Under the pieces are notes generated by a model. The model was not told where the DNA came from, ran no database searches, and saw only the letters and a list, made by a program, of their open reading frames with translations. Of a stretch of DNA of 64,000 nucleotides, positions 3,773 through 62,773 are shown piece after piece (positions within the stretch are counted from its first letter, which is position 1; each line of letters opens with the position of its first letter). Position numbers and translations under genes: made by a program. This stretch comes from Candidatus Poriferisocius sp. (GTDB taxonomy: Bacteria > Actinomycetota > Acidimicrobiia > Acidimicrobiales > Bin134): positions 535,095-599,094 of the forward strand of contig NZ_OZ241836.1 of the NCBI RefSeq assembly GCF_965202595.1, written 5' to 3'.

Positions 3773-6664
3773 TTAGGTGTTGCTGATGGCGATGGCCCGG
3801 GTGTCGGTACCCAGGTAGCTGGCTATAACCAGGGGGTCGTTACGCACTTCGGGAGGGGTTCCCTCGGCGATCACCCGGCCGGCTTCGAGGCAGTACACCC
3901 GGTCGCTGATGCTCATGATTAGGGGCATGTCGTGCTCGATGATCAACATGGCCGCACCCAGCTCCCGGCGGATGTTCACGATGAGCGGCCCGAAGGCTTC
4001 GGTCTCGCGCTGGGCCACCCCCGCGGTGGGCTCGTCGAGGCACAGCACCCGGGCCCCCAGGGCCAAAAGCCCGGTGATCTCCACTATGCGCCGGGTGCCG
4101 GTGGAGAGGTCGCTGATGTAGGAGTCGCCGTAGCGGCCCAAACCCAAAAAGTCGATCAGCTCGTCGGCCTCGGCCCGCCGCCGCCGCTCCAGGGCGAACG
4201 TGCGGGGCAGGTGCAGGGCGGTGCTGATCAGCGGCGTGCGGCCCCTGGCCTCCAGGGCCACCTGCACGGTTTCCCTCACCGTCAGCTCTGGGAACAGTGC
4301 GGCGGCCTGGAACGTTCGCCCCAGCCCGGCCCGGGCTCGCCGGGGCGCGGAAAGCCGGGTGATGTCGGTGCCCAGCAACTCCACCCGGCCGCTCGACGGC
4401 ACGTAGCCCCCCACCGCGTTCATGAAGGTGGACTTGCCCGCGCCGTTGGTGCCGATGAGGCCCACGATCTCATCGGGACGAACCAGCACCGTGGCCCCTG
4501 ACACCGCATCCACACCGCCGAACCGCACGCTGATGTCGCGGCCGCCCAGCATGGGATCGGTGGCCGGCCTCGGGTCCCTGGGACGGTTCAGAGCCACCGG
4601 CACGGTTTTCACCGTCTTGGTCCAGTCGGCGGGACCGAGCCGCCGCTCGGCCAGGACGATGAGGGCGTTGCGGGCGCTGTAGCCGATCTGCACCAGCCCG
4701 CCGGGGAAGTACATGAGCACCACCAGCAGCCCGACGCTGGATGAGAACAGGGCCACGGTTTCGGAGCTGTTGAACAGGTTGGGAAGTCCGTAGACCCAGA
4801 TCGCCCCCAGCACCGCGCCCACCGACGACCCCAGGCCACCGATGACCACCATGCCGACGAGTTGCAGGGAGTCACCCACCTGGAAGAAGCGCTCGCTGAG
4901 CGGCACGTTCTGCACCAGCCCGGCCAGAAGCGCCCCTCCCAGGCCGGCGATCCCACCGGCCAGCGCGAACGAGGACAGCTTGGAGCGAACCGGTCCGACC
5001 GTGTAGGCCGATGCCGAGTCGATGTTGTCGCGCACCGCGATGATGGTGCGGCCGGTGCCGGAGCGGCGCAGCCGGCTCACGATGATCACCACTATCAGCA
5101 GAAAAGCCAGGCAGACGTAGTAGTAGCGCTTCTGGGAGGCAAGATCCAGGCCGAACAGCTCGCCCCGGCGGAACGAAACCGATGAGGTGTTGCCCCCCGA
5201 GAAGAACGGCCTGTGGTAGAGGTACTGCTGGGCGGCCAGCGCGAACACGAACGTGGTAACCGCCAGGTGGAGGCCGCGGACCCGCAACGACCCGATCCCG
5301 ATCACCGCTGCCACCAGCGCCGAGAACAAGCCGGCCAGCACGATGGCGACCATGAACGGGATGCCGCCGGTCTCGAACCGGATGTCGAAGAAGTCGAACG
5401 ACAGGGCATCGCCGGGCAGGAACCCGGTTCCCACGGTGAAGTCCATGGACAGGCCCCGGTGGAGGCCGGCGGCGAACAGTGCCCCCATGCCTGCGAAGGT
5501 CATCTGGGCCAGGGATAGCTGGCCGGCCCAGCCGGTGATGATGGTGACCGATACGCCGCACACCGCGAAGCACAGCACGGTGGCGTACAGGAGCTGGCGT
5601 GAAGGCAGGTCGGTGATGCCGGGAAGTTGCACGAGCACGATGGCGAGCAGCGCCAGGGCACCCAGAGAGATCCGGGACAGGTGCCGCAGCCACCACAATT
5701 GCCGCAGCCGCTCGGGGATCGGCCGCATCTTGGGGGCGAAGGCGAAGGCTCCGGTCTCCCCCCGGCTGCGGCTCTGGAAGTAAACGGCCACCAGAACGGC
5801 CAAAAAGGTCACGAAGTTGATGAGCCCCTGATCGCTCAGGAAGTTGAACCGCAGCAGGGATTCGGAGGCGCCGATCAGCACCCCGGCCAGCACGGCCCGG
5901 GGGAACGAGACCATGCCGGCCAGCACGGCGGCCACCATTGCCTTGCCCAGTGTCAACGACCCCAGATTGATGAGGCCCGAGACCCCGCGGGTTGACCCCG
6001 ACAAGAGGATCATGGACACCGAGGCCAAAAGCCCGGCCATGATCCACACGAAGGTGGACACCTTCTTGGGGTTGATGCCCGACAGGCGGGACAGTTCGGG
6101 GTTGCCGGCCGCCGCCGCCACCGACTTGCCGAACGTGGTGCGGTTCAGAAGCCAGCCCAGCACCAGGGCCAGCACCGGCACCACGATGAGAATGGTTAGC
6201 TGCGGGCCTCGCATGCGTATCCCGGTGTTCAGGACGCTTTCCCAGGTTCTGCCGATCATCACCGGGTAGCTCCGCCCGGCGGTTTCGATGTCGGGAAGTT
6301 GCAGAACCACCAGTTGAGCGAGCTGGGCAATGCCCACCGTGGCCACCAGCACGATCACCCGGGGAGAGGTGAACAGGCGGCGGATCACGGTGAGCTCCAC
6401 CGCGGCGGCGAACAGCGTGCCCAAAAGCAGCGACAGGGCCAGCGCCAGCCAGAACCCCCAGCCGTGGTTCAGCACCAGCAGCGCCAGGACCGAGGCGGCG
6501 ATGATGCCCATGTTGCCCACCGCGAAGTTGATGACCCGGGTGGACCGGTAGATCAGCACTATCCCCATGGCCACCAGGCCGACCGCCAGGCCGTTTACCA
6601 CCCCGTCGAACACGATCTGGCGGGTGATCCACACACCGACCATGGGCAGAGCGGTGGTTTCCAT
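3773..6664 (-). CDS. fused Liv-type ABC importer: LivH-like permease + LivM-like permease + LivG-like ATPase
   Basis: N-terminal LivH-like region (VNGLAVGLVAMGIVLIYRSTRVINFAVG), a central second permease domain, and a C-terminal ATPase (Walker A GTNGAGKST, LSTGTRRIVE, Walker B VLCLDEPTAGV). Start taken at METTALPMVGVW (ATG 6664). Confidence 0.8.
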   Translation of the reverse strand: METTALPMVGVWITRQIVFDGVVNGLAVGLVAMGIVLIYRSTRVINFAVGNMGIIAASVLALLVLNHGWGFWLALALSLLLGTLFAAAVELTVIRRLFTSPRVIVLVATVGIAQLAQLVVLQLPDIETAGRSYPVMIGRTWESVLNTGIRMRGPQLTILIVVPVLALVLGWLLNRTTFGKSVAAAAGNPELSRLSGINPKKVSTFVWIMAGLLASVSMILLSGSTRGVSGLINLGSLTLGKAMVAAVLAGMVSFPRAVLAGVLIGASESLLRFNFLSDQGLINFVTFLAVLVAVYFQSRSRGETGAFAFAPKMRPIPERLRQLWWLRHLSRISLGALALLAIVLVQLPGITDLPSRQLLYATVLCFAVCGVSVTIITGWAGQLSLAQMTFAGMGALFAAGLHRGLSMDFTVGTGFLPGDALSFDFFDIRFETGGIPFMVAIVLAGLFSALVAAVIGIGSLRVRGLHLAVTTFVFALAAQQYLYHRPFFSGGNTSSVSFRRGELFGLDLASQKRYYYVCLAFLLIVVIIVSRLRRSGTGRTIIAVRDNIDSASAYTVGPVRSKLSSFALAGGIAGLGGALLAGLVQNVPLSERFFQVGDSLQLVGMVVIGGLGSSVGAVLGAIWVYGLPNLFNSSETVALFSSSVGLLVVLMYFPGGLVQIGYSARNALIVLAERRLGPADWTKTVKTVPVALNRPRDPRPATDPMLGGRDISVRFGGVDAVSGATVLVRPDEIVGLIGTNGAGKSTFMNAVGGYVPSSGRVELLGTDITRLSAPRRARAGLGRTFQAAALFPELTVRETVQVALEARGRTPLISTALHLPRTFALERRRRAEADELIDFLGLGRYGDSYISDLSTGTRRIVEITGLLALGARVLCLDEPTAGVAQRETEAFGPLIVNIRRELGAAMLIIEHDMPLIMSISDRVYCLEAGRVIAEGTPPEVRNDPLVIASYLGTDTRAIAISNT

Positions 6665-6753
6665 CAACCGCCCTCGGTTCCGAGGAACTGGAGTACTGGG
6701 TCGTCTATTTGGTTGGATGCAGTTTCCATCAACCGCCCTCGGTTCCGAGGAAC
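6657..6753 (-). repeat. 32-bp direct repeat x2 (period 65) at the LivF/LivHMG junction
   Basis: gtttccatcaaccgccctcggttccgaggaac occurs at 6657-6688 and 6722-6753, separated by a unique 33-bp spacer. On the minus strand each copy carries TGATG. The upstream copy ends the MFS-LivF gene and the downstream copy starts LivHMG. Between them lies a 21-codon ORF, METASNQIDDPVLQFLGTEGG (6729 to 6664). Confidence 0.9.
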
Positions 6754-9083: not shown

Positions 9084-9239
9084 ATGAACAAGCCGTTGAA
9101 CAAACCATCCAACGTTGTGAGCGAGCCGTTGAGCAAGCCATCCAACAGCAAACCATCCAACGTTGTGAGCGAGCCATCCAACAGCAAACCATCCAACGTT
9201 GTGAGCGAGCCATCCAACAGCAAACCATCCAACGTTGTG
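9084..9239. repeat. 36-bp tandem repeat, about 4 copies (one 48-bp variant)
   Basis: caaaccatccaacgttgtgagcgag recurs at 9101, 9149, 9185 and 9221 (periods 48, 36, 36). It lies in the divergent intergenic region between the MFS-LivF gene and the PNPOx-like gene. Confidence 0.9.
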
Positions 9240-14477: not shown

Positions 14478-14498
14478 GTCCGGAGCCGGGCTCGAAGG

Positions 14499-14528
14499 CC
14501 TATCTTTGCCTATCTTTGCCTATCTTTG
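14499..14528. repeat. 10-bp tandem repeat x3 (cctatctttg)
   Basis: Copies at 14499-14508, 14509-14518 and 14519-14528, in the intergenic region upstream of the ABC ATPase. Confidence 0.9.
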
Positions 14529-16384: not shown

Positions 16385-17638
16385 ATGAAACGAGGCAAAG
16401 GGATATGGCCCGCGCTGCTCACCATTTTTGTGGTGTTCGCCCTTGCGGCCACCTCGTGCGGAAACGACGACTCGGGGAACGAGGGCGATGATGCCGCCCC
16501 CGCACCGGCAACCGAACAACCGGCAACCGAACAACCCGCAACCGAGGAGCCGGCCCCCGAGGAACCGGCTGAAGAGGATCCGTTCGCCGGCTGTGGTGAG
16601 GGGGCCGAGGTTGACCCCTCCATCCTGGCCGTCGGCCGGCCGGTGGCTCGGTGCGAACCCGGGTATCCCAAGGCGATCCCGCTGGCGGAGCGTCAAACCA
16701 TCAACTTCTCCTCGTCCTTCAAGCTGGAGTTCATAGCCCCCATTCTGCTGGCCGACTCCCTGGGTGAGTTCGAGAAGGAGAACCTTGATTTCAACTTCAT
16801 CAACCTCGGGCTCTCCGATGCTTTGCCCCAGATCGGTACCGGCCAGATCGATCTGGGGGTGGGTGGCATCGAAGCGGCGGTGTTCAACGCCATCGACAAC
16901 GATTTCGACGTGCGGTGGGTGAGTGCCAACTTCTTCCCCCCGAACGCCGGTGACAACAGTGTTCCCCAGACGGGGGTATGGGCCCGCGCCGACGTTTTCT
17001 CCGACCCGTCCAATCCCGACATTGCCGAGTTGGAGGGCACCAAGATGGCTTCCGCCGTCGGGCTCAGCTCGGTCATCGCTTATCCCATTGCCGAGGCGCT
17101 GAAGCCCGCCGGGTTGGTGTTCGGAGTGGATGTGGAGGCCGAGCAGATTCCCTCCACCGACATGATCCTGGCCATGGAGAACAACGCCGTTCAGTCGGCA
17201 TGGATCCTGGATCCGCTGTGGGGGGCACTGGTGGATCGTCCCGATGAATTCGTGTTCGTCACCGGGCAGCCTCCGGGTGAACCCATCGGCGGTCTTTTCG
17301 GCGGCCCATCGTGCCGTGAGACCAAGCGGGATGCCTGCGTGGCGTTCCACAGAGCGATCATCAGGACAATAAACACCTACCTCACCGGTGACTACCACCA
17401 GAACGACGAGATCGTTGAAGCCATCGCCGAGGCCATTGATCGGGAGCCGGACGCGGTTCGGGCCACACCGTCTCTGCTGTTCGACTGGGAGATCCGCGAG
17501 GGCACAGCGACCCGGGCCCAGGAGGCATTCATCAGCTTCGCGGAAGCGGGTGTGACCGTCGTCGAGTACGACGAGCCCTATCCCGAGGACCAAGTGGTGG
17601 ATCGTTCGATCTACCTGGAGGCCATCGGGCGGCAGTAG
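16385..17638 (+). CDS. ABC transporter substrate-binding lipoprotein
   Basis: MKRGKGIWPALLTIFVVFALAATSCG gives a signal peptide plus lipobox. A PATEQPATEQPATEEPAPEEPAEE linker follows, then a periplasmic-binding-type body. SD aaggaagg lies upstream. The long track ORF 15695.. overlaps the permease and is not used. Confidence 0.7.
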   Translation: MKRGKGIWPALLTIFVVFALAATSCGNDDSGNEGDDAAPAPATEQPATEQPATEEPAPEEPAEEDPFAGCGEGAEVDPSILAVGRPVARCEPGYPKAIPLAERQTINFSSSFKLEFIAPILLADSLGEFEKENLDFNFINLGLSDALPQIGTGQIDLGVGGIEAAVFNAIDNDFDVRWVSANFFPPNAGDNSVPQTGVWARADVFSDPSNPDIAELEGTKMASAVGLSSVIAYPIAEALKPAGLVFGVDVEAEQIPSTDMILAMENNAVQSAWILDPLWGALVDRPDEFVFVTGQPPGEPIGGLFGGPSCRETKRDACVAFHRAIIRTINTYLTGDYHQNDEIVEAIAEAIDREPDAVRATPSLLFDWEIREGTATRAQEAFISFAEAGVTVVEYDEPYPEDQVVDRSIYLEAIGRQ

Positions 17639-17695
17639 CGCTGGGTGGCAATCAGAGTTGGTTGGGGATCAGCGCTGGGTGGCAATCAGAGTTGG
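17637..17695. repeat. 25-bp direct repeat x2 (period 34) across a convergent stop-stop junction
   Basis: agcgctgggtggcaatcagagttgg at 17637-17661 and 17671-17695. Copy 1 contains the TAG of the binding-protein gene. Copy 2 contains the TCA (TGA) of the minus-strand ACAD gene. Confidence 0.9.
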
Positions 17696-18729
17696 ATGAG
17701 GCGGGGCACGGTTTCCTGGGCTAGCAGGTGACGGCCGATCTCGGCCGGTAACGAGTTGGCCGAGCCGAACAGCGTGTCCAGCACCAGCATCCGCTTCAGC
17801 CAGCGGTGAAAACGGTGCTCAGCCGTGAAGCCGATCCCGGCCAGTACCTGCTGGGCGTGGGTGGCGGTGGTGCGCGCCGCCCGGCCCGCCAGCGATTTGG
17901 CCAGCGCCGCCGGCAGGGGGTGGGGGTTGTGGATGCAGGACTCGGCCACCGAGCTTGCCCCCTCGATCTCAACCAGCGACTCGGCCAGCTTGTGCCGGAT
18001 GGCCTGGAACGATGCCACCGGCCGGCCGAACTGCACCCGGTTTAGGGCATGCCGGCAGGCCTCGTCCAGCATCCATCGCGCCCCCCCGAGGAGCTGGTGG
18101 GCCAGGGCAACTCGAGCGGCGACAACCGCTGAGTCCCAGGTGCCGCCCCCGGCCTGCCACTCGAGTTGATCAGCCGTGATCCGGGTGGCAACCCGGTGGT
18201 AGGCCCGCCCCGGATCCACCCCCGCGGCGGTGGATAGGGGGAGCAGCGAGGTATCCAGGCCGGCAATCTGGATCTTCCCGCCGCAGTCCACGGCCACCGT
18301 TGCCGTGGAGGCGTACCGGGCCCGAGCCGACACGAGCCCATCGATGGCAACGCGATTGCCCCGGTGAATGGCCGGTGCGGTGGATTTCAAGGGGGCGGGG
18401 AATACCGCGCAGGTTTGTATCGAGACCGCGACATTGAGGGCATGGGCTACCACGTCGTCGAGCAGCCCGGCTGCGGCCCCGGTGGTGCCCAGGGCTTTGA
18501 ACGCGGTGGCCGCGCCCCGGGCGGGGGCGGCGGCGAGCAACTCGGCCCAGCCCAGGTCGTAAAGCGCTTGGTCGGCCTCCCCCGGCCCGGCCGCGCCAAC
18601 CATGGCGGCCTCGAAACCACCGGCCAGCAAGGCCAGATCGTCGGCATCGGGGGTTTGGTTCACGATTCCGGTCCCGGGTCGAGGAGGTGTGGTTGTGGAC
18701 GCTGGTTCGGCATCGGGGGTTTGGTTCAC
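17686..18729 (-). CDS. acyl-CoA dehydrogenase-fold protein, probable non-catalytic partner subunit
   Basis: ACAD C-terminal domain (LGGARWMLDEACRHALNRVQFGRPVASFQAIRHKLAE). I see no Y/G-G-T-x-E-I-Q-like C-terminal motif. GTG 18729 overlaps the upstream ACAD stop (GTGA). An equivalent GTG at 18663 in the duplicate copy is an alternative start. Confidence 0.65.
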   Translation of the reverse strand: MNQTPDAEPASTTTPPRPGTGIVNQTPDADDLALLAGGFEAAMVGAAGPGEADQALYDLGWAELLAAAPARGAATAFKALGTTGAAAGLLDDVVAHALNVAVSIQTCAVFPAPLKSTAPAIHRGNRVAIDGLVSARARYASTATVAVDCGGKIQIAGLDTSLLPLSTAAGVDPGRAYHRVATRITADQLEWQAGGGTWDSAVVAARVALAHQLLGGARWMLDEACRHALNRVQFGRPVASFQAIRHKLAESLVEIEGASSVAESCIHNPHPLPAALAKSLAGRAARTTATHAQQVLAGIGFTAEHRFHRWLKRMLVLDTLFGSANSLPAEIGRHLLAQETVPRLIQL

Positions 18730-18753
18730 GATTCCGGTCCCAGGTCGAGGAGG
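18642..18753 (-). repeat. 46-bp direct repeat x2 (period 66) at the ACAD/ACAD junction
   Basis: cggcatcgggggtttggttcacgattccggtccc[g/a]ggtcgaggagg at 18642-18687 and 18708-18753, separated by a 20-bp spacer. The GTGA stop/start overlap is duplicated. The period is in frame and gives PGTGIVNQTPDA twice. Confidence 0.9.
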
Positions 18754-25582: not shown

Positions 25583-25610
25583 CGGGTTATTTCTAGTCCA
25601 TAACTCTGGG

Positions 25611-32296: not shown

Positions 32297-32326
<30 letters not shown>

Positions 32327-40180: not shown

Positions 40181-40216
40181 CTGAGAACCCGGTCCGGGGG
40201 CGGTACATTTAGGTAG

Positions 40217-45633: not shown

Positions 45634-45653
45634 AGCGCAGGGGTTGGCGGGCG

Positions 45654-46958
45654 ATGACCCGGTTCGTGGACGAATGCGGTTTGAATGTGCGGGGTGGCGA
45701 CGGCGGTGCCGGGTGCGTGTCGTTCCGGCGGGAGGCCCATGTGGCCAAGGGTGGCCCCGATGGCGGTGACGGTGGCAGCGGCGGCGGTGTCTGGCTGGTG
45801 GCCGATCACAATGTGGCTTCCCTGATCGCGTTCAAGGACCACCCCCACCGCCGGGCCGGCAACGGCCGCCATGGTGGGGGCAAGCGCCGTCACGGCGCGA
45901 CCGGTGACGACGCGTGGGTCAGGGTTCCCGTGGGCACCGTTGTCAGGGACCAGGGCGGGGAGCTGCTGGCCGACCTGGCGGTTGACGGAGCCCGCTGGCT
46001 GGCGGCGGCCGGGGGTCAAGGGGGTATGGGCAACACCCGCTTCTCGACCCATCTGAACCGGGTGCCCGGGTTTGCCGAGCAGGGTGAGGCGGGGGCGCAG
46101 CGCTGGTTGAGGCTGGAGTTGAAGCTGCTCGCCGACGTGGCTCTGGTCGGCTTTCCCAACGCGGGCAAGTCCACATTGATATCCCGCATTTCTGCGGCCC
46201 GCCCCAAGATCGCCGACTACCCGTTCACCACCCTCGAACCCAACCTGGGAGTGGTTCGTACCGGCGACGACTTCGAGATGGTGGTGGCCGACATTCCCGG
46301 CTTGATTGCCGGGGCCGGCGAGGGACGCGGCCTCGGTCACCGTTTCCTGCGCCACATAGAGCGGGCCCGGGTTCTGGTCGTGATGGTCGATCTGGCCTCG
46401 GTGGAGGATGTGCCGGCCGGGGAGCAGCAGCGGGTGCTGCTCCACGAACTGGGGTCGTACCGACCGGAATTGCTGGATCGACCCCGGATCCTGGTGGCTT
46501 CCAGGGCCGATGCCGGTCACCTGGATCCGCCGCCCGGAGCACTGCGCGTCTCAGCGGTCACCGGTGCCGGCCTGACCGAACTGGTTCGAGCCATGTCCAC
46601 CGCGGTGCGAACCGCCCGGGACCGAGAGGATCCGCCCCGAAGCCCCGGTGGTTCCGGTGGTTCCGGCGATGTTGTCGTTCACCGGCCCGTTCCCGAGGGG
46701 CTGGCGGTGGAGCGGGCCGATGACGGCGTTTTTGTGGTGCTCGGTCGGGCTGCGGAGCGGGCGGTGGCCCTGTCCGATCTGCACGCCCCCGGTGCCTGGG
46801 ACTTCGCTCGTCGCCGCCTTCGGGGGTTGGGGGTGGACCGGGCCCTGGAACGGGCCGGGATAAAATCGGGGGACACCGCTCGAATCGGTGCCTTCGAGTT
46901 CGAGTACCAGGATGACGACGAGTACTGGGCCGAGGGAGCCGAGGGGGACACAAGGTGA
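45654..46958 (+). CDS. obg: GTPase Obg
   Basis: MTRFVDECGLNVRGGDGGAGCVSFRRE Obg fold. G1 GFPNAGKST, G3 DIPGLI. C-terminal OCT-like domain. Confidence 0.9.
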   Translation: MTRFVDECGLNVRGGDGGAGCVSFRREAHVAKGGPDGGDGGSGGGVWLVADHNVASLIAFKDHPHRRAGNGRHGGGKRRHGATGDDAWVRVPVGTVVRDQGGELLADLAVDGARWLAAAGGQGGMGNTRFSTHLNRVPGFAEQGEAGAQRWLRLELKLLADVALVGFPNAGKSTLISRISAARPKIADYPFTTLEPNLGVVRTGDDFEMVVADIPGLIAGAGEGRGLGHRFLRHIERARVLVVMVDLASVEDVPAGEQQRVLLHELGSYRPELLDRPRILVASRADAGHLDPPPGALRVSAVTGAGLTELVRAMSTAVRTARDREDPPRSPGGSGGSGDVVVHRPVPEGLAVERADDGVFVVLGRAAERAVALSDLHAPGAWDFARRRLRGLGVDRALERAGIKSGDTARIGAFEFEYQDDDEYWAEGAEGDTR

Positions 46959-48052
46959 TCGTGGTGGTGAAGATCGGCACCTCGTCGATCACCGAGGCCG
47001 ACGGCACCATCAAGGCCGGAGCGGTGGCCAAATTGAGCGGTGAGGTGGCGGCCGCAGTGGCCTCCGATCATCAAGTGGTGGTGGTCAGCTCCGGGGCGAT
47101 CGGTGCCGGGCTGCCGGTGCTGGGTTTCGCCCGGGGGCGGCCCCGGGATCCGGTCACCCTCCAGGCGCTTTCCGCGGTGGGCCAGAGCAGGTTGATGGCC
47201 CTGTATCAGGAGTGCCTCGGGGGTTACGGTCTGGTATGCGGCCAGGTGTTGCTGGCTCCCCGGGATTTTCTGGAGCGCTCCCAGTACCTGCACGCCCAGC
47301 GCACCCTCGCCCGGTTGCTCAAGCTGGGGGTGATCCCCATCGTCAACGAGAACGACGCGGTGGCCGACGACGCCATCCGCTGGGGGGACAATGACCGCAT
47401 AGCGGCACTGGTGGCTCACATGGTGGGTGCGGAACTTTTGGTGCTGCTGACCGACATCGAGGGGGTTCATACTGCCGATCCCCGCTTTGACACCGAAGCC
47501 CGGATTGTGGAGGAGATCACCGACCTCGGCATTCTCGACGAGCTGGCCGCCGCGGCCGGTGGGTCCGGTACCGACCGGGGCAGCGGCGGCATGGCCTCCA
47601 AGCTGGCGGCCGCCCGCATCGCCAGCCGATCAGGGGTAAGGACCGTCATTGCCGCCGCTCACCGGCACCAGGTGGTGGCCGATGCCCTGGCCGGGGTGCC
47701 GGGCACAGGATCCACGGTGGTTGCCCAGCCCCGCCGGTTGAGCGCCCGCAAGCTGTGGATCGGGTTTGCCATGGTCCCCACGGGAACGATTCAGGTGGAT
47801 GCCGGTGCCCGCCGGGCGGTGATGGAGCGGGGTGCTTCGCTACTGGGTATAGGGGTCACCGGGCACGAGGGCAGCTTTCAGGTCGGCGATGCGGTGGATG
47901 TGTGCGGGCCGGATGGCCAAGTGTTCGCCCGGGGTCTGGTGAAGGTTCCGTCGGAGGAGATGCACTCGGTGGTGGGCATGCGTACCGACTCCATACCTTC
48001 CGGCCGCCCCGACGAGGTCATCCACCGCGATTCCCTGACCGTCCTGCTCTGA
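46955..48052 (+). CDS. proB: glutamate 5-kinase
   Basis: VVKIGTSSIT..., amino-acid kinase fold, C-terminal PUA domain. GTG overlaps the obg stop (GTGA). Confidence 0.9.
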   Translation: MIVVVKIGTSSITEADGTIKAGAVAKLSGEVAAAVASDHQVVVVSSGAIGAGLPVLGFARGRPRDPVTLQALSAVGQSRLMALYQECLGGYGLVCGQVLLAPRDFLERSQYLHAQRTLARLLKLGVIPIVNENDAVADDAIRWGDNDRIAALVAHMVGAELLVLLTDIEGVHTADPRFDTEARIVEEITDLGILDELAAAAGGSGTDRGSGGMASKLAAARIASRSGVRTVIAAAHRHQVVADALAGVPGTGSTVVAQPRRLSARKLWIGFAMVPTGTIQVDAGARRAVMERGASLLGIGVTGHEGSFQVGDAVDVCGPDGQVFARGLVKVPSEEMHSVVGMRTDSIPSGRPDEVIHRDSLTVLL

Positions 48053-48130
48053 ACGGCGAGGTACCAGGAGCCGACGACCTGCGATCTCCACGACCTCGCC
48101 TCCCACCCCCTGCTCTGAACAGCAAGGTAC
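48043..48130 (+). repeat. 22-bp segment containing the proB stop, repeated 66 bp downstream
   Basis: cctgctctgaacggcgaggtac (48043-48064) vs cctgctctgaacagcaaggtac (48109-48130), 20/22 identical. Confidence 0.8.
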
Positions 48131-48728: not shown

Positions 48729-50475
48729 TTCTGAGCAGCATTGCCTTGAACCGCCCCAGGCCCTGCTCGATCAGCGCGGCGGCTTCGTCGGCGGCGGCCA
48801 CCCCCGCCCCCCGGCCGAGAACGATGTAGACCATTCCCACCACCAGCAGGGCGAACGGCGCGCCCACAAGAGCCGGCAGGGGTTCCAACCCCCAAGCCAG
48901 CACCCCGCCCAGCACCGCCGCGGTAAGGGCGGCGGGGGCCAATCGACGGGCCGGTCCCCGCAATGGCCGGTGGCACCGCAGCAGGTGGCGGACCCGATGG
49001 CGCAGAATGCCGTACTCCACCCAGGCCCCCACCGTGCTGCCCAGGGCCAGGCCCACCGCCCCCAGCCTCACGGCCCGGTCGGCCCTTTCCGCGCCGGAGA
49101 GCACCCGGAAGTCCCCCAGGCGCTGCACGCTGCCATCGATCACCGCGTAGGAGTCGAAACTGAACATCAGAAGCAGCCCCACGGTGGCGGCCAGCACCAG
49201 GCGCACGACCGCCACCCGGGCCGGACCCCTGGTGTCGCCGGCGGCGAAACAGGTGTTTTGCAGCAGGCGGGCCGAGGCCGAGGCAGCCAGCCCCAGGCTG
49301 TAGGCGGCCAGGATCCACCACACCTGAACCGTCTGGTCGGCGTTGAACTGTCCCCGCTCCAGCAGGGCTCCCACAATCAGCCCGCCCAGAGTGATGAACG
49401 CCACCGCGGAGAACAACACGTAGAACCCGATGCGGTCCAGCCCGGTTTGCAGCCGCCGCATCAGCGCCCCGGGATCATCCTGCTCGCGAGCCATCTCCGG
49501 CAGGTCGCTGGCCGCCACGCTCATGGCGAACAGGCTGATGGGCAGGAAGTAGATCACCTGGGCGAAACCCAGGGCGGCGATGGCCCCACCGGCCAGCAGA
49601 CCGGCCAGGATCAGATCCACATAGGCCGACACCTGCACCACGCCCCGCCCGATGAGGGCCGGGCCGAACCGGCGGAGCACGATGCGCACATCGGGGTGTC
49701 GCCAGTTCAGGCCGAAACGTAGCGACGGGACCAGCCGGAGCACCAGTGGCACCTGGACCAGAAACTGGAGGGCACCGCCCAGCACCACACCCCAGGCCGC
49801 CATCCTGGCCACGTCGGAGGCTCGGGTTGCCGGGTCCACGGTGTGCCAAACGGCCCAGGCCCCCACCATGAACGCCACTTGGGTGGCGTTCCAGATCACC
49901 GGAGCGGCGTAGGACAGAAAGAACCGGCGATGGGAGTTGAGCACCCCCAGGGCCCACGCGGCCGGCACGATGAACCCGATTCCGGCGAACATGATCCGTA
50001 CCAGCTCGACGGTGAGGTCGGTGGTGTCATCGGGCAACCGCCACAGCAGCAGCGACACCAGCGGCCGGGCCAGCATCCATCCGGCCAGCACCACCAAACC
50101 GGTAACCAGGGCCAGGAGTCCGAAAACCGCCCCCGCCAGCCGGCCGGCCTCCCGGGACCGCTTCTGCTCCACCAGTTGCGAGTAGATCGGGATGAACGAG
50201 GCCGACAGCACTCCCTCGCCCAGCAGGTTTTGAAGCAGGCGGGGAATGGTCAGGGCGGCCCGGTAGGCATCGCCGGTGCGCCCCGCGCCGATGAAAGCGG
50301 CCACCGCCGACTCCCGACCGATGCCGGCCAGGCGGGACAGGAATATCCCAGCACCGACAAGGATGGCACCCTTGCCGCTGGTTCTGCGCTCGTTGATGCC
50401 GGCTCTTCCGCCACTGGTTCCGCGCTCGTGATTGCCGGCTTTCCTGCCACTGGTTCTGCGCTCATCGGTGCTCAT
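48607..50475 (-). CDS. murJ: lipid II flippase MurJ (MviN family)
   Basis: GAGIFLSRLAGIGRESAVAAFIGAGRTGDAYRAALTIPRLLQNLLGEGVLSASFIPIY is the MurJ N-terminal signature. About 14 TM helices. The N-terminus carries 3 tandem 12-aa repeats. The basic C-terminal tail overlaps the convergent gene. Confidence 0.85.
   Translation of the reverse strand: MSTDERRTSGRKAGNHERGTSGGRAGINERRTSGKGAILVGAGIFLSRLAGIGRESAVAAFIGAGRTGDAYRAALTIPRLLQNLLGEGVLSASFIPIYSQLVEQKRSREAGRLAGAVFGLLALVTGLVVLAGWMLARPLVSLLLWRLPDDTTDLTVELVRIMFAGIGFIVPAAWALGVLNSHRRFFLSYAAPVIWNATQVAFMVGAWAVWHTVDPATRASDVARMAAWGVVLGGALQFLVQVPLVLRLVPSLRFGLNWRHPDVRIVLRRFGPALIGRGVVQVSAYVDLILAGLLAGGAIAALGFAQVIYFLPISLFAMSVAASDLPEMAREQDDPGALMRRLQTGLDRIGFYVLFSAVAFITLGGLIVGALLERGQFNADQTVQVWWILAAYSLGLAASASARLLQNTCFAAGDTRGPARVAVVRLVLAATVGLLLMFSFDSYAVIDGSVQRLGDFRVLSGAERADRAVRLGAVGLALGSTVGAWVEYGILRHRVRHLLRCHRPLRGPARRLAPAALTAAVLGGVLAWGLEPLPALVGAPFALLVVGMVYIVLGRGAGVAAADEAAALIEQGLGRFKAMLLRIRLRHPLPCGGQQKPRSTAPGSSADPAPARRPRRDRRKRP
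50374..50475 (-). repeat. 36-bp in-frame tandem repeat x2.8 at the murJ 5' end
   Basis: gcc[g/a]ctggttc[t/c]gcgctcg... units at 50374, 50410 and 50446, encoding STDERRTSGRKAG / NHERGTSGGRAG / INERRTSGKGA. The start codon lies in the last unit. Confidence 0.9.
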
Positions 50476-51862: not shown

Positions 51863-51891
51863 CACCACCACGATTTCGGGGCCAGATCGGG

Positions 51892-51991
51892 CCGACCCTA
51901 GCCTTGTTTCCATGAGCGGTTGTTTTGTTGCCGACCCCGGTTTGTTTCCATGAGCGGTTGTTTTGTTGCCGACCCTAGCCTGTGCCCATGA
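51892..51991 (+). repeat. 38/39-bp tandem repeat x2.6 ending on the MoxR start codon
   Basis: ccgaccc(tag/cgg)..tgtttccatgagcggttgttttgttg. ATGA occurs at 51912, 51950 and 51988. Two 13-codon ORFs (MSGCFVADPGLFP, MSGCFVADPSLCP) are chained by ATGA to the MoxR ATG. Confidence 0.9.
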
Positions 51992-52887
51992 GCTTCTCGT
52001 TCGCTGACGTTGCCGCCGTGCGCAAGGGTTTGAGCGATGCTCAGTATCTGGCCGACGACGGCATCGCCGGGGTGGTGTATCTGGCCGAGCGCCTGGAGAA
52101 GCCGGTGCTGGTGGAGGGTCCGGCCGGCACCGGCAAGACCCAGCTTGCCAAGAGCGTGGCCGAGGCCACCGACGCCCGGCTCATCCGCCTCCAGTGCTAC
52201 GAGGGGCTGGACGAGTCCAAGGCGCTTTACGAGTGGAACTACAAGAAGCAGCTCCTGCGTATCCAGGCCGAGCGCCAGAGCGACGACATGTGGGAGCAGA
52301 TCGAGGACGATCTGTTCTCCGAGGACTTCCTGCTCACCCGACCCCTTCTGGAGGCCATACGATCCCCGGACCCGGTGGTGCTGCTGATCGACGAGGTGGA
52401 CCGGGTGGAGATCGAGACCGAGGCATTGCTGCTGGAGATCCTGTCCGATTACCAGGTGTCCATTCCCGAGCTGGGCACGGTGTCGGCCCGCCGGATCCCG
52501 CTGGTGTTCCTCACCTCCAACAACACCCGGGAACTTTCCGAGGCGCTCAAGCGGCGGTGCTTGTTTCTGCACATCGACTATCCCGACCTGGAGCGGGAGA
52601 AGGAGATCGTGCTGGCCAAGGTGCCCGGTGTGGGGGAGAGCCTGGCCGATCAGGTGGCTCGCATCGTCCGGTCGGTCCGCCAGATCGAGCTGAAGAAGGC
52701 CCCCTCGGTATCGGAAACCCTGGACTGGGCCCGCACCCTGGTACTGCTGGGGGTGGAGCACGTGGATGCCGAAACCGCGGCCGAGACGGTGAACATCCTG
52801 CTGAAGTACCGCAGCGACATCGACAAGGCGCTCAAGGAGTTCGCGTCCTCCGACGAGAGCTTCGCCCCGCCGACCGCAACCCCGTGA
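51988..52887 (+). CDS. MoxR-family AAA+ ATPase
   Basis: Walker A GPAGTGKT, Walker B VLLIDEVDR, about 300 aa. Paired with a downstream VWA protein. Confidence 0.9.
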   Translation: MSFSFADVAAVRKGLSDAQYLADDGIAGVVYLAERLEKPVLVEGPAGTGKTQLAKSVAEATDARLIRLQCYEGLDESKALYEWNYKKQLLRIQAERQSDDMWEQIEDDLFSEDFLLTRPLLEAIRSPDPVVLLIDEVDRVEIETEALLLEILSDYQVSIPELGTVSARRIPLVFLTSNNTRELSEALKRRCLFLHIDYPDLEREKEIVLAKVPGVGESLADQVARIVRSVRQIELKKAPSVSETLDWARTLVLLGVEHVDAETAAETVNILLKYRSDIDKALKEFASSDESFAPPTATP

Positions 52888-52921
52888 TCCGAATCTCCGG
52901 AAATCCAGATCATTCAATGCA

Positions 52922-52980
52922 GCCATGAGAGTCGAGCCCCGTGATGGTGGCCTGCTGACCGGGCCATGAGAGTCGAACCC
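52922..52980 (+). repeat. 18-bp duplication (period 41) of the VWA-gene start
   Basis: gccatgagagtcga[g/a]ccc at 52922 and 52963. ATG 52925 opens a 14-codon ORF, MRVEPRDGGLLTGP*, whose TGA overlaps ATG 52966. Confidence 0.9.
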
Positions 52981-58766: not shown

Positions 58767-59441
58767 TCAGTCGTGGAGGCCGCACTCGGTTTTTTCGGAG
58801 CCGGCCCAGCGGCCGGAGCGGGGGTCGTCGCCGGGGGCCACCGGTGTGGTGCAGGGCATGCAGCCGATGGAGGGGTAGCCCCGATCCAGCAGGGGATTGA
58901 ATGGCACCTTGTGCTCGACCATGTAGTCGGCCACGTGTTCGTCGGTCCAGGTGGCTATGGGGTTCAGCTTGACCAGGCCCCGTAGGTCGCGCACCACTAT
59001 GGGGGCGCTCACCCGGGTGACGGCCTCTACCCGGCGCAGGCCGCTCATCCAGGCCGCCTTGCCGGCCAGGGCCCGGTCGAGCTGGCCGGCCTTGACCGCC
59101 GAGCAGCAGTTCTCCGGGTCCATGTTCCACAACTCGGGATCGTGGCGGGCCACGGTCATCAATCGCAGGTTCAAGCCGTAGTGGCGGCGTACCCGTTCCA
59201 CCGTCTCCAGCGTCTCGGGGAAGTGGAAGCCGGTGTCTATGAACACCACCTCGATGGCCGGGTCCACCTTTACCGCCAGGTCTATAAGCACCGCGTCGGT
59301 CATCGACGCGGCCAGCGACAGGTGGGGGGAGAAGTTGTCCACCCCCCACTGGATGATCTTCTCGGCGGGGAGCCGCTCGAACTCCTCGTTGAGGGCGGCC
59401 AGCTCGGCGTCGGGAAAGGACGGTATGGTCAGGTTGCGCAT
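58767..59441 (-). CDS. cysH: adenylyl-/phosphoadenylyl-sulfate reductase
   Basis: PAPS_reduct fold, Cys pairs CCSAVK and GCMPC (Fe-S type), C-terminal ECGLH. Confidence 0.9.
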   Translation of the reverse strand: MRNLTIPSFPDAELAALNEEFERLPAEKIIQWGVDNFSPHLSLAASMTDAVLIDLAVKVDPAIEVVFIDTGFHFPETLETVERVRRHYGLNLRLMTVARHDPELWNMDPENCCSAVKAGQLDRALAGKAAWMSGLRRVEAVTRVSAPIVVRDLRGLVKLNPIATWTDEHVADYMVEHKVPFNPLLDRGYPSIGCMPCTTPVAPGDDPRSGRWAGSEKTECGLHD

Positions 59442-59501
59442 TCGGAATCACCAACCACGGAGGGGGACGGTATGGTCAGGTTGCGCATTCGGAATCACCA
59501 A
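59418..59501 (-). repeat. 37-bp direct repeat x2 (period 47) at the sulfite reductase/cysH junction
   Basis: ggacggtatggtcaggttgcgcattcggaatcaccaa at 59418-59454 and 59465-59501. Each copy holds the cysH-type ATG and the reductase-type TGA. A 19-codon ORF, MRNLTIPSPSVVGDSECAT*, runs 59488 to 59429. Confidence 0.95.
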
Positions 59502-61260
59502 TCACGACTTCGTAGGGGCCGGTCTCGTCGTAATCCACGTAGTACTCGGGGCCGGTCTCGGGGGTGGGGAACTCATCCAGGTCGGCCAGATCCCGGCCCA
59601 CCTCACGGGAACCGCCCCGGCGCTCCAGCCAGTGACGGAACTGCTCGCCCGCTTCACGCTCGGCGGTGAACTGTCTCACCACCCGCACCACCGCTTCGGG
59701 AGCGTTGCGGGCGGGCAGGCGCAGGGCTTTGGTGCCGAAATGAATCTGGGTGTCGCCCACATAGCCCCCGAGCAGCATCTGGTAGCCCGGTGCTGAGCGG
59801 CCATGGGCCCGGCGCTCGGCCCCGAAGAAGCCGATGTCGGAGGCGTGGTGCTGGCCGCAGGAGTTGGTGCAGCCCGAGATGTTGATCCGCAACCCTCCCA
59901 CCTCGGACAATCCCTCCTCCTCCAGGCGATCGCCTATGGCATCGGCCAGCCCCCGCGACTGGGTCACGGCCAGGTTGCAGGTGTCGGCCCCGGGGCAGGC
60001 CACCACGTCGCGCAGCAACTCCGCACCGGGTTCGGCCATGGAGATGGACGACAGGGCCTCGAACAACCGGGGCAACTGGTGCTCGGCCAGGTCGCGAAAC
60101 ACGATGTTCTGGCGGTTGGTCACCCGGCACTCCGCTCCCAGCTCCCGCTGGATGGCGGCCAGGGAGTCGAACTGATCGGCGGTGATGTCACCCAGGCGAG
60201 CCCAGGCGTAGGCCGAGACGGTGCCCCGGGCTGCTCCCCGCACCACGTTGGCCTGCTCCCAGCGCTCATACGGTGCCCGGCCGCCGATGGCAACCGCCAC
60301 GCCCTGGCCCACCGGGGTGGCGGTCATCCCGTCCCGGTGCCCGGCGGGGGCGTCGCCGTGCATCCTGACAAGATCGGGGATACCACCGGCCCAGTCCGCC
60401 GAGGCCGGCAAGAACTTGCGCTCCCGGAGGATGCGGCGCTGGAGCTCCTCAAAGCCCAGGTGCTCGACCAGCCACTTCATGCGGGCCCGGAGCTTGTTGT
60501 CGCGGTTCCCGTCGTGGTCGAACACCCGCAGGCAGGCCTCAATGGTGGGCAGTAGCTCCTCGCGGGGGGTGAAGTCCTCCAGGGCCAGCGCGGGATGGGG
60601 ATTGGCCCCCAGACCACCGGCCACGAACACCCGGAATCCGGCCTCGATTCCGCCGTTTACCTCCCGGGTGGCGGCCACGATACCCACGTCGTTGAACATG
60701 GCCTGGCCGCAGTCGGTGGCGCACCCCGAGAAGTTGATCTTGAACTTGCGGGGCAGCCGCTGAGCGTAGGGGTGGCGGAGGAAGTGCAGGGCGGTGGCCC
60801 GGGCCCAGGCGGTGATGTCCAGAACCTCGTGGGGGCAGGCACCGGCCAGGTGGCAGCCCTGCACGTTGCGGACGGTGTCGCCGCAGGCCTCCCGGGTGGT
60901 GAGCCCCACCGAGGCCAGCACCCTCATCACGTCGGGCACGTTGTCCAGATCCACGAAGTGCAGTTGGATGTTCTGGCGGGTGGTAATGTGCCCCCAGCCC
61001 CGGGACCAGGTTCGGGCGATGTGGGCCAGGGCCTCGAAATGCTCGGGATGGATGATCCCGGCGGGGACCTTGACCCGCACCATCTGGTGGGTACCGCCCT
61101 GACGCTGACCGTAGATGCCGTTGTTCAGGCGGAACACCCGCATCACATCCTCGGGTATCTCACCGGCCTTGTAGCGGGCCAGCATCCGCTCGAACTTGTC
61201 GATGTCGGCTTGCTGGGCGGGGTCTATCACCGCGGTGTTGTCGAGTTGAACGGTGACCAT
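59476..61260 (-). CDS. ferredoxin-dependent sulfite (nitrite) reductase, siroheme/4Fe-4S hemoprotein
   Basis: Two NIR_SIR repeats. Cluster/siroheme cysteines are in CPGADTCNLAVT and SGCTNSCGQHH. Confidence 0.9.
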   Translation of the reverse strand: MVTVQLDNTAVIDPAQQADIDKFERMLARYKAGEIPEDVMRVFRLNNGIYGQRQGGTHQMVRVKVPAGIIHPEHFEALAHIARTWSRGWGHITTRQNIQLHFVDLDNVPDVMRVLASVGLTTREACGDTVRNVQGCHLAGACPHEVLDITAWARATALHFLRHPYAQRLPRKFKINFSGCATDCGQAMFNDVGIVAATREVNGGIEAGFRVFVAGGLGANPHPALALEDFTPREELLPTIEACLRVFDHDGNRDNKLRARMKWLVEHLGFEELQRRILRERKFLPASADWAGGIPDLVRMHGDAPAGHRDGMTATPVGQGVAVAIGGRAPYERWEQANVVRGAARGTVSAYAWARLGDITADQFDSLAAIQRELGAECRVTNRQNIVFRDLAEHQLPRLFEALSSISMAEPGAELLRDVVACPGADTCNLAVTQSRGLADAIGDRLEEEGLSEVGGLRINISGCTNSCGQHHASDIGFFGAERRAHGRSAPGYQMLLGGYVGDTQIHFGTKALRLPARNAPEAVVRVVRQFTAEREAGEQFRHWLERRGGSREVGRDLADLDEFPTPETGPEYYVDYDETGPYEVVIGDSECAT

Positions 61261-61376: not shown

Positions 61377-62750
61377 TCAGTCGCTGAGCCGCTCGGCCAG
61401 CCGGAAGGCCAGTTCCAGGCTCTGGGTACCGTTCAGCCGGGGGTCGCACATGGTTTCGTAGCGCCGTTCCAGGTCGTTGTCGCTCAGGGCCTCGGCACCA
61501 CCCACGCACTCGGTAACGTCGTCGCCGGTGATCTCCACGTGGATGCCGCCCGGCCAGGTGCCGGCCTGGTTGTGAGCGTCGAAGTAGCCGTTTATCTCGG
61601 TCACCACGTCCTCGAAATGGCGGGTCTTGAGCCCGCCGGGGGTGGTGTAGGTGTTGCCGTGCATGGGGTCGCACTCCCACAGCACCGGATGGCCGGCGTC
61701 GCGGGCCGCAACCAGCAGGGGAGGCAGGGCATCGAACACGTTGCGGGCACCCATGCGGCTGATGAGGGTGAGCCGGCCGGGTATCCGGTCGGGATTGAGG
61801 TTCTCGCACAGTTCGAGGACATCCGCCGGCGTTGCCGTGGGTCCCAGTTTGCACCCCACCGGGTTCTTGATGCCCCGCATGAACTCCACATGGGCACCGT
61901 CCAGCCGGCGGGTCCGCTCACCGATCCACAGCATGTGGGCTGAGCAGTCGTACCACTGGCCGGTTATGGAGTCCTGGCGGGTGAGGGCCTGCTCGTAGTC
62001 CAGCACCAGCGCCTCGTGGCTGGTGTAGAAGTCCACCTGGTGCAGCTCGGGGGCATCGGGGGGGATACCGCACGCGGCCATGAAGCGCAGGGCGGCATCG
62101 ATGCCCTCGGCCACCCGCTCGTAGCGCCGCCCCTCGGGGCTGGACGCGATGAAATCCTGATTCCATCGGTGGACCTGGCGGAGATCGGCGTAACCCCCCT
62201 TGGTGAACGCCCGCAGCAGGTTCAGGGTGGATGCCGATTGGTGGTAGGCCCGGATGAGGCGCTCGGGGTCGGCGGTGCGGGAGCGCTCGGAGAAGCTGAT
62301 GTCGTTGATCATGTGACCCCGGAACGAGGGGAGCTCCACGTTGTTGACCACCTCGGTGGAGGAGGAGCGGGGTTTGGCGAACTGGCCGGCGATCCGGCCG
62401 ATCTTCACCGTGGGCACCCCGGCGGAGAAGGCCAGCACCACAGCCATTTGCAGGATGACCTTGAGCTGGTCCCGGATGCTGTCGGCGGTCACCCCGTTGA
62501 AGGACTCGGCGCAATCGCCGGCCTGGAGGACGAATGCCCGGCCCGCACAGGCCTCGGCCAGTTTACCCTGGAGCTGGCGGGCTTCTCCGGCGAACACCAG
62601 CGGGGGCAGCTTGGCCAGGGTCTCGCAGGCCTGTTCCAGCGTTGACTGGACGGGCCATTGCGGTTGCTGAGCCGCCGGCCGATCCCGCCACGAGGACGGG
62701 TGCCAGGAGGCTGGGAGCGGGCCAACCGTTTCAGCGGTGACCGAACTCAT
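61377..62750 (-). CDS. aroG: 3-deoxy-7-phosphoheptulonate (DAHP) synthase, class II
   Basis: About 457 aa. WRDRPAAQQPQWP...VFAGEARQL...LQAGDCAESF is characteristic of the class II enzyme. Start is ATG 62750 (or TTG 62762). Confidence 0.9.
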   Translation of the reverse strand: MSSVTAETVGPLPASWHPSSWRDRPAAQQPQWPVQSTLEQACETLAKLPPLVFAGEARQLQGKLAEACAGRAFVLQAGDCAESFNGVTADSIRDQLKVILQMAVVLAFSAGVPTVKIGRIAGQFAKPRSSSTEVVNNVELPSFRGHMINDISFSERSRTADPERLIRAYHQSASTLNLLRAFTKGGYADLRQVHRWNQDFIASSPEGRRYERVAEGIDAALRFMAACGIPPDAPELHQVDFYTSHEALVLDYEQALTRQDSITGQWYDCSAHMLWIGERTRRLDGAHVEFMRGIKNPVGCKLGPTATPADVLELCENLNPDRIPGRLTLISRMGARNVFDALPPLLVAARDAGHPVLWECDPMHGNTYTTPGGLKTRHFEDVVTEINGYFDAHNQAGTWPGGIHVEITGDDVTECVGGAEALSDNDLERRYETMCDPRLNGTQSLELAFRLAERLSD

Positions 62751-62773
62751 GGTGAAGCCCAATTCATGGTGAA
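62747..62773 (-). repeat. 10-bp duplication (period 17) of the DAHP synthase start
   Basis: tcatggtgaa at 62747-62756 and 62764-62773. On the minus strand, caccATGA occurs twice, enclosing a 6-codon ORF MNWASP* (62767 to 62747). Confidence 0.85.

Follow-up and report, generated by a model that had tools for sequence, protein, structure and literature searches.

Mycobacterial interspersed repetitive units (MIRUs; Supply et al. 1997, via the review PMC12548453) contain open reading frames (ORFs) coupled at -4 to the gene at their site of insertion, an arrangement thought to minimise the impact of insertion. They belong to a single family, dispersed and apparently mobile, whose units at about 41 loci share one consensus (PMC12548453). 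In Mycobacterium tuberculosis a variable-number tandem repeat (VNTR), ETR-F/VNTR3239, lies at the junction between rnc and fpg (PMC2734929). Borg elements carry many perfect, locus-specific, recent and independent tandem repeats that are nearly absent from related genomes; those within genes are always divisible by three and build disordered segments, while about half are intergenic or start inside the end of a gene, often with partial repeats at their flanks (PMC9879509). Overlaps of the -4 and -1 type (ATGA and TGATG) have been shown experimentally to couple neighbouring genes by termination-reinitiation (PMC6728339, PMC10666635, PMC12548453). Here we describe a 64,000-nucleotide (nt) stretch of Candidatus Poriferisocius sp. 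(NZ_OZ241836.1, positions 535,095-599,094; assembly GCF_965202595.1), called the window throughout, whose gene junctions carry short duplications peculiar to each locus. Where such a duplication copies the start codon of an overlapped gene, its period usually leaves a remainder of two on division by three (2 mod 3), and the extra copy forms a mini-ORF that closes on the next start.

Repeats were called with Tandem Repeats Finder, a direct-repeat search and our own offset scan, and all three agree. With a match of at least 18 nt at offsets of 8-200 nt as the offset-scan criterion, the window (GC 60-68%) holds 26 local direct-repeat loci, or about 4 per 10 kb, against a chance expectation of 0.07 loci in third-order Markov simulations; a looser criterion of at least 14 nt gives 30. 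A 50-kb control from E. coli K-12 returned 3 loci, one of them a REP cluster, and six GC-matched loci of distant Acidimicrobiia returned 0-0.9 repeats per 10 kb. The trigger factor of the window matches 15 related loci of uncultured Acidimicrobiia at 72-77% identity, several of them named 'Candidatus Poriferisocius' (sponge-associated), and these genomes (L-numbered below) together with the window make up our comparative set of 16. In a four-protein tree L015 (OZ220474.1) is the sister of the window, at 87% identity, and the remaining 14 genomes form a second clade. A Joint Genome Institute (JGI) metagenome scan for nearer relatives gave only PBP2 homologues of at most 48% identity, plus one short 54% fragment; the longer JGI loci served as outgroup and density controls. 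At 6.6 repeats per 10 kb, L015 is with the window the densest genome compared; the other close relatives have 0-2 per 10 kb, leaving aside a 111-nt coding repeat in L009.

A preliminary description, made from the letters of the window, had placed about 25 short duplicated segments containing a stop or start codon at gene boundaries. Indeed, of the 26 loci 21 meet a gene boundary or lie at least partly in intergenic DNA, where 6.9 would be expected (0 of 2000 permutations reached 21), so that an excess at gene ends is present in the window. The other five lie 2-74 nt from a gene end with periods all divisible by 3, and every one of the 26 is within 75 nt of a gene end. Periods of repeats inside reading frames are 12, 15, 30, 33, 36, 39 or 48, and the head-to-tail arrays found by Tandem Repeats Finder include 56 x4.0, 61 x2.5, 39 x4.3, 36 x3.1, 38 x2.7 and 12 x4.9. 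The number of sites in the preliminary description was thus about right, but its account of their content was too broad: about seven sites are in-frame coding repeats near protein termini, three to four are purely non-coding, and several copy a stop only. Read singly, the loci fall into four classes: start-carrying, with units that include the downstream gene's start codon and mostly also the upstream gene's stop; stop-only (clpX 61, rodA 38, RNase E/G 53, ferredoxin 36); purely non-coding or at a convergent junction (9101, 14498, 17637); and in-frame within terminal tails (among others, the N-termini of RNase E/G and MurJ and the C-terminus of PBP2).

The repeats are unrelated between loci, as had been proposed. 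A short-word BLAST of the units against the whole window returned, outside each unit's own locus, only chance matches of 10-14 nt, and in an Rfam scan of the window no family fitted the units, the only matches being 4 tRNAs. A dispersed REP- or MIRU-type family is ruled out by the lack of both non-local unit matches and an Rfam match. Exact-protein look-ups with window proteins led to a single other contig. A second, independent assembly, the ENA contig ERZ26693861 ctg136020, spans window positions 3182-61778 (about 58 kb) at 100% identity over 3182-24477, 99.94% over 20412-41035 and 99.2% over 40624-61778. The gene identities behind the essential operons named in the preliminary description were borne out by Pfam matches to trigger factor, ClpP, MreC, PBP2, L27, Obg and CysH; MreD has no Pfam match and was assigned by synteny and alignment to relatives. 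Pfam also identified ClpX, FolC, NDK, MreB, RodA, a radical SAM protein, RNase E/G, L21, ProB, MurJ, sulfite reductase and DAHP synthase.

At same-strand junctions the mini-ORFs take their N-terminal codons from the downstream gene and their C-terminal codons from the upstream gene, and meet the flanking stop and start by -4 or -1 overlaps. The MIRU-like architecture suggested earlier is thus present: at stop/start junctions the mini-ORF of each extra copy regenerates the overlap. We traced the chains by stepping along overlapping starts from each gene's stop. One lies between tig (stop 30241-30243) and clpP (ATG 30408) on the plus strand, where four perfect copies of a 56-nt unit (30201..30423) span the ATGA junction and give three identical 19-codon mini-ORFs, starting at 30240, 30296 and 30352, each closing on the following ATGA (steps of 56, 56 and 56 nt). 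Just upstream of tig, at 28228-28783, both strands encode tRNAs, four genes in all. Further along the plus strand, a composite repeat of period 30/48/78 (36221..36349) sits inside a 35-codon bridging ORF (36242-36349) that leads from the mreC ATGA to the mreD GTGA (36346), 104 nt start to start, and at the mreD/mrdA GTGA junction two copies of a 35-nt unit (36834..36894) yield a 12-codon mini-ORF (36849-36887) that relays mreD to mrdA. Two 41-nt links (52884..52980, plus strand) connect the GTGA at an AAA gene's stop to the ATGA of a VWA/CoxE gene (52966) through two 14-codon ORFs in series, at 52884 and 52925 (ATGA).

On the minus strand, the 65-nt repeat at 6657..6753 consists of two identical 32-nt arms around an unrelated 33-nt spacer; its mini-ORF (6732..6664, 21-22 codons) begins on the upstream TGA and finishes on the downstream TTGATG start, an intact 65-nt relay. 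It joins two unusual transporter fusions (3773-8984, by Pfam): one that unites MFS and ABC ATPase parts (6729-8984), and a second, of the LivHM/LivG ABC type, that combines two branched-chain permease domains with an ABC ATPase (3773-6667). A decayed 32-nt link at 25579..25616 runs, also on the minus strand, from an amidohydrolase stop to the start of a glyoxalase-like gene (25582); its 11-codon mini-ORF (25614..25579) goes from an ATGA on the amidohydrolase stop to the ATGA at the glyoxalase-like start. Between the sulfite reductase gene and cysH, which overlap by 13 nt (ATG...TGA), a 47-nt duplication (59418..59506, minus strand; 42-nt arms, 98% identity) re-creates the 13-nt overlap and forms a 19-codon mini-ORF (59488..59429).

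Elsewhere a unit carries only the start: upstream of an AAA ATPase gene (ATG 51988), 2.7 copies of a 38-nt unit (51891..51993, plus strand) produce two linked 13-codon mini-ORFs, at 51912 and 51950, each of which closes on the next ATGA (38 and 38 nt). Repeats of 72/63/11 nt at 45523..45657, on the plus strand, lie inside a 40-codon upstream ORF (45535-45657) whose TGA overlaps the ATG of obg at 45654; the two starts are 119 nt apart. Reading through of L27 to the obg start was ruled out: rpmA stops at 45492, and the later open frame is this separate upstream ORF. A weak case is a 17-nt pair before the ATGA start of the DAHP synthase gene (62736..62772, minus strand), with a 6-codon ORF at 62767..62747. 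The 2 mod 3 periods listed in the preliminary description (65, 56, 35, 38, 41 and 47) were all located, as were its three bridging ORFs (104 nt, 36242 to 36346; 119 nt, 45535 to 45654; 32 nt, 25614 to 25582) and its exceptions of 66, 51, 30 and 61; the period of 17 was also found, but it matches at only 14/17 positions and alone is not significant.

The 2 mod 3 bias itself also held. Among start-carrying duplications at start/stop-overlap junctions (NTGA, TGATG) in the 16 genomes, 17 of 20 are 2 mod 3 and the other three 0 mod 3, the 1 mod 3 class being empty (binomial p = 3e-6 for 17/20); the window by itself gives 9 of 13 (p = 0.009). Events were counted by hand, with plainly inherited ones merged and independence judged by repeat boundaries and the four-protein tree. 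Tabulating period against junction type placed the bias in the start-carrying class: start-less duplications spread over the three residue classes at about 7:7:7-9 (Fisher p = 7e-4 for the contrast). Phase bias is thus confined to the class where phase matters for translation. Since the start-less events are evenly spread, the mutational process appears to have no intrinsic preference for a residue class. A second 38-nt repeat, at the rodA 3' end (40106), carries no start, so its phase has no meaning for coupling. An automated scan, in which both copies had to carry a start codon and the last copy had to lead into a long coding ORF, returned 13 junction events, all 2 mod 3 (10 ending with a 4-nt overlap and one with a 13-nt overlap; in two a neighbouring start was apparently picked), and two 0 mod 3 cases besides.

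The exceptions are informative about how the rule should be stated. At the GTGA junction of two acyl-CoA dehydrogenase genes (18641..18753, minus strand; period 66, 0 mod 3; 47-nt arms, 98% identity), GTG 18729 is in frame with GTG 18663 with no stop between, so that the period is tolerated as a possible 22-amino-acid N-terminal extension. Elsewhere decoy starts have been disarmed by mutation. Between a CoA-transferase stop (23310-23312) and a ferredoxin ATG (23228), the inner units of an array of three to four 30-nt units (23213..23322, minus strand) have lost the ATG and each retain an in-frame TGA; in a 66-nt (0 mod 3) repeat that copies the proB stop and the next gene's ribosome-binding and start region (48043..48130, plus strand), the decoy ATG is lost. 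A 51-nt (0 mod 3) repeat at 45179..45256, plus strand, copies the ribosome-binding site, ATG and first codons of rpmA, whose start is ATGT; here the decoy ORF (45190-45228) ends 12 nt before the true ATG (45241). The phase rule is therefore better put as a demand that the frame of a decoy start close at or beside the true start. As it holds for start-only duplications without an upstream overlap (51912, 52925), the minimum appears to be termination at the true start and not coupling to a given upstream gene.

The mreC-mreD junction shows how such links age. Distant Acidimicrobiia have a direct 4-nt mreC/mreD overlap, and since this is the outgroup state we take the direct -4 overlap as ancestral. 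Within the sponge clade only L012 and L014 have it; the other 14 of the 16 genomes have bridging ORFs, and all 14 chains are intact. Their links measure 65 nt in seven genomes, 62 in four, 47 in L016 (a clear repeat), 68+29 in L015 and 104 in the window. In L007 the 62-nt mini-ORF consists of a recognisable mreD N-terminus followed by an mreC C-terminus, which shows an origin by duplication across the ATGA. L014, 99% identical to its sister L007, is without the link, a precise loss that apparently occurred by deletion between 12-13-nt direct repeats, GAACACGGC(C/A)AA. In the interior of the mini-ORF of the seven 65-nt genomes the mean pairwise difference is 0.30-0.37 at every codon position; in the flanking mreC and mreD codons two positions have values of 0.03-0.06 and the third 0.17-0.23, and the four 62-nt genomes show the same pattern. 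These values indicate that the peptide is unconstrained and that its DNA changes no more slowly than synonymous sites do. The length of the mini-ORF, its open frame and both overlaps have nevertheless been kept despite this drift, while ordinary spacers in the same genomes (downstream of rodA, clpX-folC) vary widely in length.

Other junctions have been duplicated separately in different lineages. Fourteen genomes have a single copy of the mreD-mrdA NTGA junction, which has been duplicated in the window (35) and, independently, in L013 (62). At tig-clpP, 12 genomes have a single-copy ATGA and L012 a 65-nt duplication; the 56-nt duplication, with equal boundaries in both, is present as four perfect copies in the window and as two diverged ones in L015. 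At folC-ndk (stop, 14 nt, GTGA) there are 38-nt duplications whose boundaries differ among three sets, L002/3/4/9, L012 and L015 (x4), and each duplication yields a mini-ORF closing on the GTGA; copy numbers thus differ among species (56 x4 vs x2; 38 x0 vs x2 vs x4). At clpP-clpX, where the start is not NTGA, a 58-nt (1 mod 3) start duplication occurs in L012, L013 and L016, and its decoy ORF ends 4 nt before or 8 nt after the true start. The N-terminus of this mini-ORF, AKRDW, is conserved in the three genomes, which are not monophyletic in the four-protein tree; this sharing implies repeated loss, recombination or an imperfect tree. The rodA 3' end has independent duplications in relatives, of 38/39 and 47 nt. 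In L015, five alternating 49-/53-nt copies at 1279-1532 repeat the last 14 codons and stop of one gene, the largest stop-only array that we observed.

We propose, with a probability of roughly 0.75, that the arrays are locus-specific and minisatellite-like, and that they reflect frequent short tandem duplication in this clade followed by selection at two levels. Replication slippage or template switching would copy short (10-70 nt) local segments anywhere, and the arrays would then expand and contract, which would keep arms identical while an unconstrained middle decays. A first sieve, whose pattern is seen in the positions of the repeats, would leave those survivors in which both adjoining reading frames are intact: duplications that straddle a stop and/or start, that lie in non-coding DNA, or that are in frame in tolerant terminal tails. 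A second sieve, visible as the phase pattern, would act through a mechanism suggested by termination-reinitiation at -4/-1 overlaps, since a copied start with its ribosome-binding region may act as a decoy upstream. When the true start is overlapped and the period is 2 mod 3, the decoy ORF would close exactly there, and ribosomes would stop and restart, making a mini-ORF relay. A period of 0 mod 3 would give an N-terminal extension, and one of 1 mod 3 would send ribosomes across the true start out of frame; the latter class is unseen at overlap junctions. Decoys in the wrong phase would persist only with a nearby stop gained or the start codon lost, and both escapes are observed. The peptides of the mini-ORFs would have no function of their own. 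The data favour selection over mutational mechanism as the origin of the phase bias, because start-less duplications are evenly spread and old mini-ORFs keep their length and phase while their sequence drifts.

Several observations weigh against this account. In three lineages the stop-only rodA duplications (38, 38/39 and 47) are mostly 2 mod 3 as well, for which translation offers no evident reason. The events were hand-counted, and some may be shared by descent (three 38-nt folC-ndk duplications; the 62- and 65-nt mreC-mreD links). No array within 3182-61778 differs in copy number between the two assemblies, so that no polymorphism is seen. Coupling through the mini-ORFs is read from sequence geometry, and the account takes the raised duplication rate in the clade of the window and L015 as given. 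Plain duplication followed by uniform decay also does not predict what is seen at the repeat-spacer-repeat loci: their arms (18-47 nt) are 93-100% identical, yet the spacers (5-44 nt, of lower GC) are unlike the flanks, with no significant score in gapped alignments of spacers to both flanks at any of the 8 loci that had non-repeat flanks for the comparison. What would be needed is concerted evolution by expansion and contraction, a constraint acting on the two arms, or filler DNA acquired when the repeat formed, and each is possible. The clpX array, A-B-A-B-A with perfect copies, fits concerted evolution, and the L007 mreC-mreD mini-ORF represents an intermediate stage of decay.

A simpler explanation would be tolerance only, with the duplications as neutral leftovers that survive where no gene is broken and the 2 mod 3 excess arising from chance, ancestry or classification. 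Reading-frame integrity by itself gives enrichment at boundaries, several of the 2 mod 3 events could be one inherited event, and the stop-only rodA duplications share the 2 mod 3 phase for no clear reason. The window's own 9/13 and the Fisher contrast of start-carrying with non-start events speak against chance, however, and at the same junctions (tig-clpP, mreD-mrdA, mreC-mreD) independent events with different boundaries have equal phase. Freely drifting mini-ORFs hold their length and both overlaps in 14/14 genomes, where ordinary spacers vary; we consider tolerance alone unlikely. It is likewise improbable that the arrays are an adaptive rheostat, in which copy number itself is selected and each added mini-ORF lowers reinitiation, tuning protein ratios in the manner of a contingency locus. 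Perfect multi-copy arrays within operons (tig-clpP x4; L015 folC-ndk x4), the interspecies variation in copy number (56 x4 in the window but x2 in L015) and the differential translation within operons proposed for MIRU-VNTRs (PMC2734929) would suit such a role, but the two assemblies of the organism are equal in copy number, the genes that bear the arrays are unrelated and have no common functional theme, and stop-only and non-coding duplications are equally present.

Insertion with a long target-site duplication, by a small mobile element, off-target integration of the Cas1-Cas2 type or staggered-break end-joining with filler, would produce near-identical 18-47-nt arms around lower-GC 5-44-nt spacers unlike either flank, and the 32-33-nt arms and 28-33-nt spacers at 6657 and 32298 recall the dimensions of CRISPR. 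Arm and spacer lengths vary continuously, however, without a ruler; the spacers are unrelated to each other and to the rest of the window; and many loci are plain head-to-tail whole units (56 x4, 38 x2, 35 x2, 39 x4). Moreover, the middle of the L007 mini-ORF is a decayed copy of the mreD N-terminus and mreC C-terminus, so decay can make spacers, and we regard insertion as very unlikely. That the mini-ORFs encode functional small proteins is highly improbable: the 22-codon length of the mreC-mreD ORF is conserved in 7 genomes and some residues recur, but all three codon positions vary equally, and more than the third position of the flanking genes, and the peptides are chimeras of neighbouring gene ends, partly in another frame. 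Although repetitive DNA is notorious for causing errors in assemblies, an artefact of assembly or polishing can be dismissed as far as is judgeable without reads, because ERZ26693861 ctg136020, 99.2-100% identical over 58 kb, has equal copy numbers and because the assemblies that other groups made of other species contain homologous duplications that have partly diverged.

The remaining repeats of the window carry no start codon or lie within reading frames. Stop-only duplications copy the final codons and TAG of the ferredoxin gene (22908..22966, period 36, minus strand), the clpX stop without the folC start (32298..32452, 2.5 perfect copies of period 61, plus strand), the final rodA codons with TGA and 21 nt downstream (40106..40183, two copies of period 38, plus strand) and the RNase E/G 3' end (44685..44772, period 53, plus strand). 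Perfect palindromes lie in conserved arms of two loci, CCTCGGAACCGAGG in the 65-nt repeat (6657-6688 / 6722-6753) and GGACCGGTCC in the clpX repeat (32298-32330). Non-coding loci comprise three copies of a 36-nt unit plus a copy at a 48-nt offset in intergenic DNA between divergent genes, where GC at third codon positions is low (9101..9239), 3.1 copies of period 10 in intergenic DNA 20 nt beyond a stop codon (14498..14528, plus strand) and a 34-nt repeat at a convergent junction (17637..17695), whose unit includes the stop of a minus-strand acyl-CoA dehydrogenase gene.

In-frame repeats occupy the PBP2 C-terminal tail (38861..38955, plus strand; period 30 (15), 3.2 copies, 13 nt from the gene end), the MurJ N-terminal tail (50373..50463, minus strand; period 36, 2.5 copies) and the disordered N-terminal region of RNase E/G (42913..43272, plus strand), where three neighbouring arrays, 12 x4.9, 48 x2.7 and 39 x4.3, encode PQAK x5, a 16-amino-acid unit x2.7 and a 13-amino-acid unit x4.3. 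The second assembly has one single-nucleotide difference within the 39-nt array (43191). L21 (Pfam domain at residues 6-104 of 122) has an 18-amino-acid C-terminal tail, encoded at 45162-45215, that is the duplicated rpmA start region read in another frame; a ribosomal protein has thus been lengthened by a junction duplication. In the sulfite reductase gene (59868-60724) the second assembly (L041) differs at about 1 position in 5, with many 1-nt indels between near-identical flanks, which could be low-coverage noise near the contig end or a recombined strain variant. Two blocks with lower GC at third codon positions (9883-12852 and 54900-58700) contain DUF2442, PIN-domain and weak HTH_17 genes and no junction duplications; they may be toxin-antitoxin or mobile DNA.

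The pattern suggests selection so strong that it filters structural mutations, whether by acting on termination-reinitiation or, at the least, by opposing read-in out of frame. A -4-coupled internal ORF that makes an intergenic repeat tolerable was previously known for one mycobacterial mobile family only; here the same architecture recurs from plain local duplication at unrelated junctions in several species. The junctions offer a natural experiment, with dozens of ready-made cases of one to n copies for gauging the reach of a ribosome relay, in a bacterial clade with a Borg-like propensity for tandem repeats, whose dense and sparse sister genomes allow the cause to be studied. In practice, gene callers will misplace starts and stops at such junctions, and assemblies need repeat-aware checks. 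More speculatively, junction microduplication might be a lineage-wide process in which reinitiation-phase selection is strong enough to shape indel spectra genome-wide, arrays attenuate coupling by copy number, and new termini and small ORFs arise; we hold this broad form to be rather doubtful. If it is true, new termini would be exemplified by the L21 tail from the duplicated rpmA start, the 22-amino-acid extension at 18729, and the tails of RNase E/G and PBP2.

In a literature search for locus-specific junction duplications with a phase rule, only MIRUs, M. tuberculosis VNTRs and Borg repeats were found. Like MIRUs, the arrays described here are tandem units of tens of base pairs between co-directional genes in actinobacterial operons, and an internal ORF overlaps the flanking stop and start codons (6732, 25614, 30240-30408, 36242-36346, 36849-36884, 52884-52966). 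The three classes of MIRU unit are also approximately 2 mod 3 in length, and their copy number varies between strains. Unlike MIRUs, each unit here copies its own junction and the loci are mutually unrelated, and the host is not a Mycobacterium but a member of the Acidimicrobiia, 'Ca. Poriferisocius', whose closest genomes are metagenome-assembled. With VNTRs and minisatellites the arrays share head-to-tail units of 10-100 bp, but the M. tuberculosis VNTR paper (PMC2734929) describes no phase rule or mini-ORF relay and concerns single loci, compared with about one fifth of all gene ends here. A CRISPR array differs in that here arm and spacer lengths change at every locus and no repeat sequence is held in common; no cas genes were noticed among the annotated genes of the window. 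The many perfect, locus-specific repeats, with genic periods divisible by three, resemble those of Borgs; however, Borgs are A-rich archaeal extrachromosomal elements, whereas these repeats are GC-rich and lie among bacterial chromosomal genes (tig, clpPX, mreBCD, rplU-rpmA, obg), and the Borg paper (PMC9879509) describes neither regeneration of stops and starts at junctions nor a bias in period. Finally, studies of termination-reinitiation concern real gene pairs, whereas here the relay would pass through one to three non-functional ORFs born of duplication.

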